The notes beneath the pieces were generated by a model. The model was given only the letters and a program-made list of their open reading frames with translations. It was not told where the DNA came from and did no database searches. From IMG/VR virus record IMGVR_UViG_3300023112_000001: a DNA stretch of 64,000 bases; one strand, 5' to 3'. This DNA is from a virus. Taxonomy: Duplodnaviria; Heunggongvirae; Uroviricota; Caudoviricetes; Crassvirales. Below, in pieces: positions 31,910-48,959 of this stretch (position 1 is the stretch's first letter; every line of letters begins with the position of its first letter). Position numbers and translations under genes: made by a program.

Positions 31910-32155
31910 TTAAATTTCGTTTCTTTTAAATTCTTCTATTCTTTTATATACAGATTCATTTACATCTCTTGGTAACTCTTTGAATTGATTCGCAGCCCCT
32001 AGAAACATTAAATCTATACTTAGATTAGATAATCCATCTCTATTTAATAATATTGATAATTCTCTATGATCATTTCCTATTCTATTTAAATTTAATCCAT
32101 GATAATTCTCAATATTATAGTAGTATGGATAGAATAGCCCAAACATAAGATTGCA
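31910..32155 (-). CDS. DnaB-like replicative helicase, exon 2 (C-terminal 81 aa).
   Basis: CNLMFGLFYPYYYNIENYH...SILLNRDGLSNLSIDLMFL aligns with the DnaB C-terminus ADLIMFIYRDE...IIIGKQRNGPIGTV.LTF. The ORF-track Met is created by the intron's terminal G. Confidence 0.6.
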   Translation of the reverse strand, partial: CNLMFGLFYPYYYNIENYHGLNLNRIGNDHRELSILLNRDGLSNLSIDLMFLGAANQFKELPRDVNESVYKRIEEFKRNEI

Positions 32156-32561
32156 CATTTTGTTATCTCTAAGGCTCTTTATCCTTAGATTCTATAGCTT
32201 TAATTAAGTTATACTATAGCTCAGACTATATCATCTTCCTAAAATCTAGAAAGTCGGATGTTCGTGGATATCTTATATTCTAAATAATGAGGCAAGTATC
32301 GAAGCTTGCAATTGGGACCCCGCAAGGCGCTATTAAGCGGAGCAGTGCTAGTTTCCACGCTTACTCTATTATCCTCTTAGGAGCTGTGTCTACCAATTCC
32401 ACCACTCATTATTTAGTTTCAATATCTAGTCGTTGAACCGACCAAAACCATTTAGATTCTGGGTTGGCTGCTGATTGTCCTCTTCAGGAGTTTCCAGCAA
32501 TTTATCCGATTTTATAGGGACTGCAATTTATACATCATTGATGTATGCATAAAAGGACTCA
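32156..32561 (-). ncRNA. group I self-splicing intron (about 406 nt, no homing-endonuclease ORF) interrupting the DnaB-like helicase gene.
   Basis: On the minus strand, the 5' exon ends with U (...AGGGAU) and can pair with intron GUCCUU to form P1. Conserved group I core elements are present: P AAAUUGCUGGAAAC, Q AAUCAGCAGCC, R GUUCAACGACUAGAUA, S AAGAUGAUAUAGUCUGAGC. The intron ends with G before UGC AAU CUU. No long ORF; GC content is higher than the surroundings. Confidence 0.7.
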
Positions 32562-33434
32562 ATCCCTAGCTGTTAATTTATTATCAGCTAATCCATATGG
32601 AGTAGGCTTAACCTTATCCACAACCAAACCTCCTTTAAAATCAAAAGCTGAATCTTGACTTTGAGCTGATTGTTGTTGAACATTTACTATACTATAATTA
32701 TATTTATCTCTTAATTGAAGGCAATAATTACTTGAAAACAAACTCATTGTTTCATGTAAAGACATTCCCTTTTCAGGATTCAATAAACCAATATGGTCGG
32801 TAATTACTATTACAAATTCATCAGGATTATTAGGATAATATGCATCCTTTTTTTTCTTTTGAATTATTTTTCCATTTTCCTCCCAGTCCATAGTAGTATA
32901 AGTTTGCTTTCCATTCTTTTCAGCATAAGAATTTACAAACTTTAAAATACCAGTAGGATTTCTTATATTGTCATTGATTACAACTATTTCTTCAAAAATC
33001 CTTAACCATTCCTGAAATTCTGGAGACTTAATTATATTTAGTATTTTTTCATCTAAAATATAGCTTGAAAAAACTGATCTTAATTTTTGGGGGCTAATAA
33101 TTATATTATGTGATTTAAACAATTTATAACTAATAGCAGATAATATTTTTAATTCTTTACTAATTTCAAGACTAAAATAAAAAATTTTAGGCTTAATGCT
33201 TGTGTTATCTTTATTAGCTATATACCAATCTACAACATTAAATACAAACATATAGTCTGTAAATTGTGTTTTAGCTCCTTTTTGAGCACTTGTTACTATA
33301 TAGTACTTGCCTTGCTCAATCCCTGGTAAATACTCTGATAATCTATTAAGAGAATAAGGTATTGCTACTAATTCTCCTTTTAATCTTCTATTCCTATTGC
33401 TTTCTAACTTACTTATAACATTTTCTGATAACAT
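32562..33434 (-). CDS. DnaB-like replicative helicase, exon 1 (291 aa, RecA-like core).
   Basis: Starts at MLSENV; the upstream 55 aa of ORF 32559..33599 are an out-of-frame overlap with the preceding gene. Walker A-like IVTSAQKGAKTQF, Walker B VIVITDHIG, and KPTPYGLADNKLTARD aligned to DnaB RPMLSDLRESGSIEQD. The in-frame stop immediately after is the first codon of the intron. Confidence 0.65.
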
Positions 33435-40153: not shown

Positions 40154-40198
40154 AATTGTTTAATTTAAGTTTATTTAATTTATGAATATTAATTTGAG

Positions 40199-40275
40199 GC
40201 AATAACAAGATTCGAACTTGTGCTCAATCCGCTGTTATGCAGATTAGCTCTCAACCACTGAGCTTATATTACCAT
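40199..40275 (-). tRNA. tRNA-like element with canonical acceptor, D and T arms but a non-canonical anticodon arm; identity unresolved.
   Basis: Minus strand: acceptor GGTAATA / TATTGCC (one G.U); D arm AGCTCAGTGGTTGAGAGCT; T arm ACAAG-TTCGAAT-CTTGT. The anticodon region AATCTGC-ATAACA-GCGGATT pairs as a 7-bp stem with a 6-nt loop, or 5 bp with an 8-nt loop, instead of the usual 5 bp with a 7-nt loop. Confidence 0.4.
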
Positions 40276-45286: not shown

Positions 45287-45493
45287 TTAATTTGACAAAG
45301 TTATTTCTCCATCAAAGTCTTTAAATCCTAGCCAATCACAACTATGATATCCTGGATCATGAATTGCTCCTCCAGAAATAACTGTACCTATTGTAGGAGC
45401 AGTTGCTAGAATAATTGTTCCTTTAGAATGTATCATCAATTTAGGGAAAGGTAATTCTTTAGGTGACTTTTCTTTATTTATTTTTATATTCAT
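45287..45493 (-). CDS. small hypothetical protein (68 aa).
   Basis: ORF preceded by the conserved start-proximal motif. Confidence 0.45.
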   Translation of the reverse strand: MNIKINKEKSPKELPFPKLMIHSKGTIILATAPTIGTVISGGAIHDPGYHSCDWLGFKDFDGEITLSN

Positions 45494-45735
45494 AACAAAT
45501 GTTTATTAATAGATTCTTGTATATATTCTTTATTTTTGTGCGAATGCTTAATTTCATAATTAATCTTATTTCTAAGTCTTTTAGCATGAAATGCACATAG
45601 TATCTTAACTTTAACCTTAACCTGTTTCTTATCTTTATTATAAGTAGTTATGGTTAATCTATATTCAGGTTCTCGTAAACAATGATATTTGCTTGTACCT
45701 GAATGAGAGGTTACTTTAGCTTGACATTTATTCAT
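45490..45735 (-). CDS. small hypothetical basic protein (81 aa).
   Basis: ORF preceded by the conserved start-proximal motif. Confidence 0.45.
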   Translation of the reverse strand: MNKCQAKVTSHSGTSKYHCLREPEYRLTITTYNKDKKQVKVKVKILCAFHAKRLRNKINYEIKHSHKNKEYIQESINKHLL

Positions 45736-45899
45736 AACAAATGTTTATTTAAGTGTTAAAACAACTCTTATAACCCCTGCTTAGAGGTTAAATATACGCA
45801 CCAAAAAATACAATATAGATAGCTCCGAACCATTTAGGTATTATATGGAGAAAGTGCGTTATTATCTATATTTGCCAGCAATTGGATAAGAGTTGTTAA

Positions 45900-48498: not shown

Positions 48499-48571
48499 AG
48501 CTCATAGGTCAAATGGTTAAGATGCATGACTGTCTATCATTGCGGAGCGGGTTCGACTCCCGTATGAGCTG
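48499..48571 (+). tRNA. tRNA-Asp (anticodon GUC), probable.
   Basis: Acceptor AGCTCAT / ATGAGCT (7 bp); D loop contains GG; anticodon loop CTGTCTA; T arm GCGGG-TTCGACT-CCCGT. A U at position 37 and one anticodon-stem mismatch are atypical. Confidence 0.55.
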
Positions 48572-48576
48572 CATAT

Positions 48577-48650
48577 CTAGGCGCGATCCATTGGCGCGGT
48601 TACCTACCTTGGACGTAGGGTTATTGTAGGTTCGACTCCTACCGCTTAGA
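48577..48650 (+). tRNA. tRNA-Pro (anticodon UGG).
   Basis: Acceptor CTAGGCG / CGCTTAG with the bacterial tRNA-Pro hallmark C1-G72 pair and A73; perfect anticodon arm CCTAC-CTTGGAC-GTAGG; T arm GTAGG-TTCGACT-CCTAC. Confidence 0.7.
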
Positions 48651-48652
48651 CT

Positions 48653-48723
48653 CCTCCTGTAGCTCAATGGTAGAGTGCTTGACTGTGAATCAAGAGATCT
48701 GAGTTCAATTCTCAGCAGGTTGT
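48653..48723 (+). tRNA. tRNA-His-like (anticodon GUG) with a defective acceptor stem and no encoded G-1; possible pseudo-tRNA.
   Basis: D arm GCTC-AATGGTA-GAGT; perfect anticodon arm CTTGA-CTGTGAA-TCAAG; T arm CTGAG-TTCAATT-CTCAG. The acceptor CCTCCTG / CAGGTTG has two adjacent mismatches, and position -1 is T rather than G. Confidence 0.4.
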
Positions 48724-48729
48724 CATTAT

Positions 48730-48801
48730 TGTTCCTTAGTGTAATGGTTAGCACACAGCACTTTGAATGCTGTAGTCTAGGTTCGAGTCCTGGAGGAACA
48801 A
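48730..48801 (+). tRNA. tRNA-Gln (anticodon UUG).
   Basis: Acceptor TGTTCCT / AGGAACA with a U1-A72 pair as in bacterial tRNA-Gln; U8; D arm GTGT-AATGGTTA-GCAC; anticodon arm CAGCA-CTTTGAA-TGCTG; T arm CTAGG-TTCGAGT-CCTGG. Confidence 0.7.
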
Positions 48802-48959
48802 CAAAATACTTCATACTTTTCTTGGATTATTAAATTTAAATTTGTATATTTGCTGTATGAGATTAAAATATCATGTATCAGACATAATTAAAATGGCAGA
48901 TCAAGATGAAGAAGAATTAGAGTTGTGGTTAATAGATCATCCAGAGTTCTCTTCAGAAG

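Follow-up and report, generated by a model that had tools for sequence, protein, structure and literature searches.

Within the 64,000 nucleotides (nt) analysed here from IMG/VR virus record IMGVR_UViG_3300023112_000001 (Crassvirales), hereafter the window, the minus strand carries a DnaB-like replicative helicase gene that is interrupted by 406 nt of intervening sequence. On the basis of sequence analysis, we are highly confident that this gene is split by a group I intron that has no open reading frame (ORF) and contains the internal guide AUUGCA-GUCCCUA, and splicing is predicted to rejoin the two helicase exons at single-nucleotide precision. The evidence comes from the exact junction with uninterrupted homologues, a complete and covarying ribozyme core, a guide complementary to both exons, and relatives of the same ribozyme family in other genes of Crassvirales and Flavobacterium phages.

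Intron borders and splice junction

The gene is recorded as two ORFs. The first begins with an ATG at 33434 and meets a TGA stop at 32561-32559, directly after ...LADNKLTARD; it is identical to P0001, the 291-amino-acid product of the annotation pipeline, and aligns with residues 1-291 of uninterrupted homologues. The second (32158-31910, minus strand) reads M-CNLMFGLFYPYYYN..., and its exon is conserved in the intron-less homologues L014 and L015 and in Steigviridae helicases. When the exons are joined, the resulting protein of 372 amino acids matches annotated 'replicative DNA helicase' sequences as a single tblastn piece (94-98% coverage, 32-37% identity), including those of crAss001, IAS virus, DAC15 and many other Crassvirales (here and below, a slash marks a splice site, and ...GLADNKLTARD/CNLMFGLFYP... 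stands without a gap opposite ...GLGDSKYIARDCNILLGLFSP... in the homologue alignment). A large protein collection held 584 homologues of the helicase, the best 120 of which were inspected for truncation. Among these, solely the window's own P0001 (291 amino acids, on a contig of 101,130 base pairs (bp)) is truncated; the others are uninterrupted, 355-392 amino acids long and up to 69% identical.

The nearest intron-less alleles, those of L014 and L015 (66-69% identity), read ...GCTAGAGAT/TGCAATCTT... and ...GGTAGAGAT/TGCAATTTA..., a junction of the style ...AGAGAT/TGCAAT..., with GCTAGAGAT before TGCAAT. The window reads ...GCTAGGGAT/(406 nt)/TGCAATCTT..., and its spliced form would be ...GCUAGGGAU/UGCAAUCUU..., with the codons GAU/UGC at the junction. 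Although a TG repeat at both borders makes the placement slightly ambiguous, we assign the intron to 32561-32156 because only this placement combines an exon ending in U (U32562) with an intron ending in G (G32156). The borders are thus set by protein colinearity, by the intron-less alleles and by the U...G rule, and the intron tail AACAAAAUG is kept across the intron family. The same intron-containing allele was found in a second sample, with identity spanning exon 1 and reaching 137 nt into the intron. The source samples are filed in ENA under ERZ27250310 and ERZ27250271.

The intervening sequence has a GC content of 37.9%, against 26.7% in the exons. Its largest coding-strand ORF comprises 39 amino acids and begins with GTG, and the opposite strand holds short ORFs only (those of at least 30 amino acids were listed). 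A preliminary description of this DNA had put forward an ORF-less, GC-richer intron of about this length, the junction ARD/CN without insertion, the terminal U and G, and the two truncated helicase genes that pipelines would leave; all of these stand, with an exact length of 406 nt and with P0001 and a product of 78 amino acids as the called genes. The first three intron nucleotides (32559-32561) form an in-frame UGA, so that ribosomes would halt at the splice site, about 35 nt ahead of the guide. The last three (32156-32158) are an AUG within the AACAAAAUG tail, which resembles a start codon for exon 2.

Table 1. Coordinates of the split helicase gene, its intron and the predicted intron elements; helix strands are given 5' strand first
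Feature	Position	Strand	Sequence or description	Basis or remark
Helicase exon 1	32562..33434	-	291 codons, MLSENV... to ...LADNKLTARD; last nt is the U of GAU	ORF list
Group I intron	32156..32561	-	406 nt; starts UGAGUCC, ends AACAAAAUG, terminal G at 32156	
Helicase exon 2	31910..32155	-	81 codons and stop, CNLMFGLFYPYYYN...KRNEI	ORF list, homologues
P1 5' strand	32562..32568	-	UAGGGAU, last 7 nt of exon 1	pairs with GUCCCUA, U.G at splice site
Internal guide	32515..32527	-	AUUGCA followed by GUCCCUA, intron nt 35-47	complementary to both exons
Hairpin in P1 loop	32527..32553	-	27 nt, intron nt 9-35	minimum-free-energy fold
P element	32502-32491	-		
Q element	32476-32466	-		
R element	32439-32427	-		
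S element	32235-32224	-		
P3	32509-32504 with 32259-32254	-	UCGGAU with AUCCGA	Rfam alignment, fold, covariation; 96% paired, 5/6 pairs covary
P4	32499-32494 with 32474-32469	-	UGCUGG with UCAGCA	Rfam alignment, fold; invariant
P5	32489-32486 with 32481-32478	-	UCCU with AGGA	89% paired, covaries
P6	32461-32455 with 32449-32443	-	CAGAAUC with GGUUUUG	81% paired, covaries
P7	32431-32427 with 32228-32224	-	GACUA (R element) with UAGUC (S element)	invariant in 27/27 members
Two-tier P7.1/P7.2-type hairpin	32267..32426	-	between P7 and P3'	fold
tRNA-Leu-like insert	32283..32412	-	130 nt, in P7.1 hairpin	relaxed ARAGORN, tRNA-Leu alignment
P8	32253-32247 with 32241-32235	-	CUUUCUA with UAGGAAG; followed by J8/7	79% paired, 5 pairs covary
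P9	32219-32214 with 32197-32192	-	CUAUAG with CUAUAG	87% paired, 5 pairs doubly changed
P9.1	32188-32183 with 32174-32169	-	CUAAGG with CCUUAG	92% paired, 6 pairs doubly changed

A complete and covarying group I core

Scanned by itself, the subregion 32050-32700 (651 nt) matches the Rfam family RF00028 (Intron_gpI) on the minus strand from 32570 to 32202, with 57.2 bits against a gathering threshold of 50 (E = 7.3e-14), and the match covers the full model (positions 1-253). The P, Q, R and S elements each occur once in the window, exactly and in the correct order, and P7 forms a pseudoknot with P3. In the hairpin between P7 and P3', an outer stem (GAUAUU with GAUAUC), in which six of six pairs covary, is followed by an inner stem (CUAAAUAAUGAG with CUCAUUAUUUAG) that encloses a distal insert.

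To this single-sequence evidence we can add covariation across ten helices in 27 sequences, namely 26 compact family members gathered from phage genomes and IMG/VR together with the window intron without its insert. Here, 86.4% of the cells pair, and sliding the partners by 1-3 columns lowers this share to 32-42%; both sides of the pair change in a compensatory manner in 41 of 57 pairs, and none of 500 shuffles reaches any of these measures. The covarying helices are P3, P5, P6, the P7.1 stems, P8, P9 and P9.1, while P4 and P7 are invariant and therefore uninformative, the invariance of P4 being imposed by the search pattern. The preliminary description had called the element a group I intron from its core motifs and had proposed the Intron_gpI comparison. 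Both the motifs and the class hold up: the subregion scores above gathering, the core helices carry compensatory changes, and removal of the intron restores the reading frame.

A guide complementary to both exons

The preliminary description paired the end of exon 1 with GUCCUU near the intron start (nt 4-9), a choice that is probably wrong. A 13-nt guide further downstream, at nt 35-47, fits both exons and lies where the guides of relatives lie, directly 5' of the conserved UAAAA-P3 junction. Its P10 part, AUUGCA (nt 35-40, 32527-32522), pairs with the start of exon 2, UGCAAU, and its P1 part, GUCCCUA (nt 41-47, 32521-32515), pairs with the end of exon 1, with U32562 wobble-paired to G32521. 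Together, this gives 13 contiguous pairs across the ligated junction, a result reached by 7 of 5,000 dinucleotide shuffles.

Relatives in other host genes carry guides that fit their own exons. In dUTPase genes, the exon AGACUCU/GGUUA of cr1_1 is matched by the guide UAACU-GGAGUCU, and AGACUGU/GGUUA of cr50_1 by UAACU-GCAGUCU, such that a C-to-G change in the exon is mirrored by a G-to-C change in the guide. In the Sak4-like ATPase gene of Fpv20, GAAGGAU/UACGGA is matched by UCCGUA-GUCCUUC, and in the helicase gene of L057, the exon end UAAGGAU is matched by GUCCUUA, with U.G pairing. Since, from one host gene to the next, the guide at this position changes in step with its exons, we prefer the downstream guide, and P1 is most likely formed with GUCCCUA rather than with GUCCUU. 

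It is quite unlikely, in our assessment, that the same intron would instead use AGGGAU with GUCCUU as P1, with the next hairpin as P2 and the 13-nt complementarity as a coincidence. That pairing does give six pairs with a U.G at the splice site, and the Rfam alignment places P1 there, though with flagged non-canonical pairs. Against this, it leaves a loop of only 3 nt and offers no P10 (one pair), whereas the downstream guide provides 7 + 6 contiguous pairs, rarely equalled by shuffles, at a position shared with the guides of cr1_1, cr50_1, Fpv20 and L057, each complementary to its own exons.

The Arg codon before the splice site (32565-32567) is AGG in the window and AGA in the intron-less L014 and L015. 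The window exon is the better match to the guide, because AGG gives a G-C pair where AGA would leave a mismatch. The hairpin predicted within the P1 loop occupies the position at which cr50_1, cr1_1, L046 and L057 carry HNH or LAGLIDADG ORFs, and it may be a scar of ORF loss.

Predicted splicing and competing explanations

From the sequence, structure, covariation, exact junction and family relationships, we infer the following course of catalysis in vivo. A single minus-strand pre-mRNA of the helicase gene would carry the 406-nt ribozyme, which would fold into the usual P3-P9 core, lack a P2 and bear, between P7 and P3', a peripheral hairpin of IA type. Exon 1 would be bound to the guide by its last 7 nt, the U.G pair at the splice site included, and exon 2 by its first 6 nt. 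Cleavage after U32562 by an external guanosine would free a 3'-OH, which would then attack behind G32156, the last nucleotide of the intron. Once joined (GAU/UGC), the exons would encode a 372-amino-acid helicase with a DnaB C-terminal domain and its H4 motif restored.

Several points weigh against this picture. Splicing is a prediction from DNA sequence. Rfam scans of the whole 64 kilobases (kb), at gathering and at E<=0.001, missed the intron and returned tRNAs only (four at gathering), which is the work of speed filters. The stretch GUCCUU (nt 4-9) is a second sequence complementary to the exon and might compete for the 5' splice site. The 130-nt insert swells the peripheral hairpin far past that of most relatives and could hinder folding. 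Finally, the assignment to an IA-type subgroup is approximate: subgroup IA2 (T4/Twort type) has P7.1 and P7.2 between P7 and P3' as well as a P2, and the window intron has one covarying two-tier hairpin in that interval and no P2, with only 5 nt between P1 and P3.

A dead relic that no longer splices, with the helicase reduced to a pseudogene or made as two separate polypeptides and exon 2 translated from the ATG at 32158, would account for the in-frame ATG directly before exon 2, for the loss of any endonuclease and for the unusually large peripheral insert. We nevertheless regard it as very unlikely, as that ATG belongs to the family-conserved tail AACAAAAUG that ends in the terminal G, and we rejected it as an independent start. 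The core helices, the guide and both splice-site nucleotides are intact, and the family-conserved residues are retained in both exons, with no frameshift or stop. Furthermore, the split falls inside the conserved H4 motif, an unlikely arrangement for a viable two-piece protein, and no other helicase of the same family was seen in the 64-kb window. Other kinds of insertion (an intein, a group II intron, a miniature transposon or an assembly chimera) have nothing specific in their favour, were considered since metagenome assemblies can be chimeric, and are effectively refuted: stops in all frames rule out an intein, group I is the sole Rfam match with a significant E-value, the same junctions recur in assemblies made independently from two samples, and the borders follow group I rules to the single nucleotide.

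The host helicase and the insertion site

Taken alone, the spliced protein gives no Pfam match at E<=0.1, and searches of the PDB with phmmer and of PHROGs with this single sequence return no functional name. The identity of the helicase emerges at the level of its family. PF03796 (DnaB_C) is found in 30 of 41 aligned family members, and a family profile finds the DnaB structures 2vye, 4a1f and 2r6a together with SPP1 G40P (3bgw), with E-values from 2e-6 to 8e-5. The profile aligns from about DnaB residue 178 onward, and no match to the DnaB N-terminal domain was found in the 372-amino-acid protein. The label 'DnaB-like' in the preliminary description is therefore borne out by the profile, but not by the window protein itself, which lacks both a Pfam match and the DnaB N-terminal domain.

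In the profile alignment, ...LadnkltarD/vnlm... stands opposite ...LRESGSIEQD/ADIV... of the DnaB structures. By this alignment, the intron site corresponds to DnaB IEQD/AD, within motif H4, at the IEQDAD-equivalent position first suggested for it. Motif H4 of DnaB also houses intein sites a and c (PMC4760082), so that a selfish element sits in the same conserved motif of a DnaB-type helicase in both cases. The inteins act by protein splicing, unlike the RNA intron of the window phage. For the exact residue offset between the two, we take the Ssp DnaB extein to read G/SIEQD.

A ribozyme family across phage genes

The intron belongs to a family that is frequent in Crassvirales and in Flavobacterium phages (Bacteroidota) and whose members usually have an HNH or LAGLIDADG ORF, placed either in the P1 loop or in P9. 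Its host genes include dUTPase (p-crAssphage, cr50_1 and cr1_1), polA (cr116_1 and L046), the major capsid gene of bajarodcaudo virus 1 and the Sak4-like gene of Flavobacterium Fpv phages. The dUTPase introns of p-crAssphage (Carjivirus communis KP06_gp34/35, annotated 'contains intron insertion'), cr50_1 and cr1_1 are of the same ribozyme family as that of the window, with 76-82% identity over P3-P6 and P8-P9.1, the same guide position and a common 3' hairpin, GGAUAAAGAGCC. Unlike the window intron, they have an HNH ORF in the P1 loop, a compact P7.1 region and no tRNA-like insert. The core is most closely related to that of the L046 polA intron, which is 87% and 78% identical over its two halves and has the identical P7.1 skeleton. 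The polA intron of cr116_1 shares 93% identity with the window intron over 45 nt at its 3' end; both differ from the window intron in their host gene, DNA polymerase A, in carrying a LAGLIDADG or other endonuclease ORF, and in their distal insert.

Two family members in IMG/VR interrupt helicases, those of L057 and L137. In L057 (IMGVR_UViG_3300020047_006415, 1640-2815), the intron lies in a DnaB-like helicase gene at ...SKD/ADIV..., the same codon boundary as ...ARD/CNLM... in the window, although the helicases are only 27-34% identical and the L057 intron has a LAGLIDADG ORF in its P1 loop and no tRNA-like insert. To our knowledge, the L057 intron is apparently unannotated and undescribed. 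The helicase gene of L137 (2808-3891) is split by an insertion of about 1.1 kb after VQQQSA, a site different from that of the window. A further split helicase, in L071 (1036-5134), has a gap of about 4 kb between residues 52 and 55, in the Walker A region, a position that we take to recall DnaB intein site b.

Two other loci may hold overlooked gene structures. In L006 (2138-3079; cr116_1, MT774389, 35100-36041), DNA polymerase I is annotated as two coding sequences around an endonuclease ORF, and the intervening sequence looks like an unannotated group I intron. An Rfam scan of this cr116_1 region returned nothing, probably since the ORF breaks up the model. In Fpv20 (NC_031912; L018, 1384-2315), the Sak4-like gene has an apparent short, unannotated 5' exon, MSDTKIRT...HDKWKD; the family intron there contains the ORF gp64, and its guide UCCGUA-GUCCUUC fits both exons.

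The window intron encodes no homing endonuclease, the mark of a mobile intron, and a tblastn search of the 64-kb window with eight family endonucleases found no homologue and matched only the ribozyme core. We infer that its likeliest history is endonuclease-mediated homing followed by loss of the ORF. Most likely, the intron would derive from endonuclease-bearing relatives that home into conserved replication genes, and either the ORF was then lost or the intron arrived by a route directed by its guide sequence. Three members have exon ends ...AGGAU and guides GUCC(C/U)U in common, which makes an ectopic move directed by the guide possible; trans-mobilization may likewise have played a part. 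Both pathways have been reviewed (PMC3984707).

A tRNA-Leu-like insert in the P7.1 hairpin

The spacer between R and S measures 191 nt in the window, against 45-86 nt in most of 112 family members. Its 130-nt insert resembles a transfer RNA (tRNA): it has an acceptor-like stem of 7-8 bp, U8, a D-arm (GUGG-AAUUGGUAGA-CAC) and a 5-bp T-arm-like hairpin (GCAAG with CUUGC, the loop containing UUCGAUA) that adjoins the 3' acceptor strand, with about 70 nt replacing the anticodon and variable regions. The D-arm sequence GAGUGGUGGAAUUGGUAGACACAG is the consensus of phage tRNA-Leu genes, as judged from an alignment to five sequences, four of which are annotated phage tRNA-Leu genes. At the relaxed threshold -ps90 only, ARAGORN reports a tRNA-Leu(AAG) with a 53-nt insertion ('intron'); under this relaxed setting, 2 of 500 shuffled introns yield a tRNA call of any kind, and 19.8 kb of family spacers yield no call. 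Default ARAGORN and the Rfam tRNA model (E<=10) do not call the insert. Its anticodon stem is weak, its T-loop has 8 nt, and an alternative helix (AAUUGG with CCAAUU) competes.

L046 shares the P7.1 stem skeleton but carries a different distal insert. The tRNA-like insert is absent from all relatives examined, and exact-pattern scans of IMG/VR and JGI metagenomes found none. We came across no published account of a tRNA-like domain embedded in a group I intron. On balance, these sequence features lead us to favour a derivation from a tRNA-Leu, and the insert is probably not a decoding tRNA. That it was captured in the P7.1 loop as a functional module, rather than as a neutral insertion, seems unlikely. 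Speculatively, such a module might be a docking platform for a host tRNA-binding protein, or it might be a substrate of RNase P/Z that steers what becomes of the intron after excision or liberates a tRNA-like RNA. Leucyl-tRNA synthetase helps group I splicing in yeast mitochondria.

Genomic setting

The split helicase gene sits with genes for a Phg_2220_C protein, a conserved protein of 249 amino acids and a P-loop protein, and a gene for an SNF2-type helicase lies further upstream. These neighbours fit the replication gene block of crAss-like phages as laid out previously (PMC7886860). A TerL-like ORF of the window is 34% identical to that of Cellulophaga phage phi14:2 and 27-30% identical to those of Crassvirales. 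When 24 kb of the window were compared with phage genomes by megablast, no close relative emerged, and in IMG/VR, the best helicase identity to the window protein was at most 35%. By these comparisons, the window represents a divergent crAss-like phage without a close relative in the phage or IMG/VR collections.

Elsewhere in the window, ARAGORN identifies four tRNAs (Asp, Pro, His and Gln) in a cluster at 48499-48802 on the plus strand; Rfam lists three of the four, the tRNA-Pro at 48577-48651 not being among them. An atypical tRNA at 40196-40273 on the minus strand scores 41.5 bits in Rfam, and ARAGORN gives it no anticodon; its anticodon stem (AAUCU with GGAUU) encloses a 10-nt loop, GCAUAACAGC. 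Suppressor tRNAs occur in crAss-like phages (PMC7886860). A second candidate intron, at 45437-45883 on the minus strand, had only weak P-like and S-like motifs and was rejected.

Discussion

Group I introns have been documented in crAss-like phages (PMC7886860), and introns have been reported in helicase genes of the Staphylococcus phages (myoviruses) Romulus, Remus, K and G1 (PMC5526547). Phage introns that lack an ORF have precedents as well, and their mobilization by free-standing endonucleases is termed collaborative homing (PMC3984707). Unlike in such systems, no family-related endonuclease was found within the 64 kb, and the immediate neighbours of the intron-split gene are conserved replication genes. 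The introns of T4 td, nrdB and nrdD, of Twort and of S-PM2 psbA are self-splicing IA-type ribozymes in conserved motifs of DNA-metabolism genes. The window intron likewise interrupts such a motif and is predicted to be a ribozyme of this kind, and its core P-Q segment is 88% identical to that of the S-PM2 psbA intron. These classical introns and the Staphylococcus helicase introns belong to other phage lineages, whereas the window phage is Crassvirales-like with Bacteroidota hosts; for the Staphylococcus introns, the likeness is that of an intron in a gene called helicase.

With introns known in crAss-like phages and in Staphylococcus helicase genes, and with L057 interrupted at the same site, the rarity that the preliminary description ascribed to an ORF-less intron in a phage helicase gene was overstated. 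[quoted passage not shown] The tRNA-Leu-like module is one unusual feature of this intron and, if functional, would be a new kind of peripheral domain for a group I ribozyme.

For annotation, the consequence is that the only DnaB-type helicase seen in the window is now called as fragments of 291 and 78 amino acids. A default genome-scale Rfam run misses an intron that scores above gathering, such that introns of this kind are undercounted. The introns of crAss-like phages have been catalogued via endonuclease domains (PMC7886860), and because genome-scale Rfam scanning misses the window intron and ORF-less introns escape the endonuclease-domain approach, the intron load of Crassvirales-like phages is probably undercounted. 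Furthermore, two helicases of only 27-34% identity are interrupted at the IEQD/AD site of motif H4. In Bacteroidota phages, one ribozyme family with interchangeable endonucleases moves among genes for dUTPase, polA, Sak4-like ATPase, capsid and helicase.

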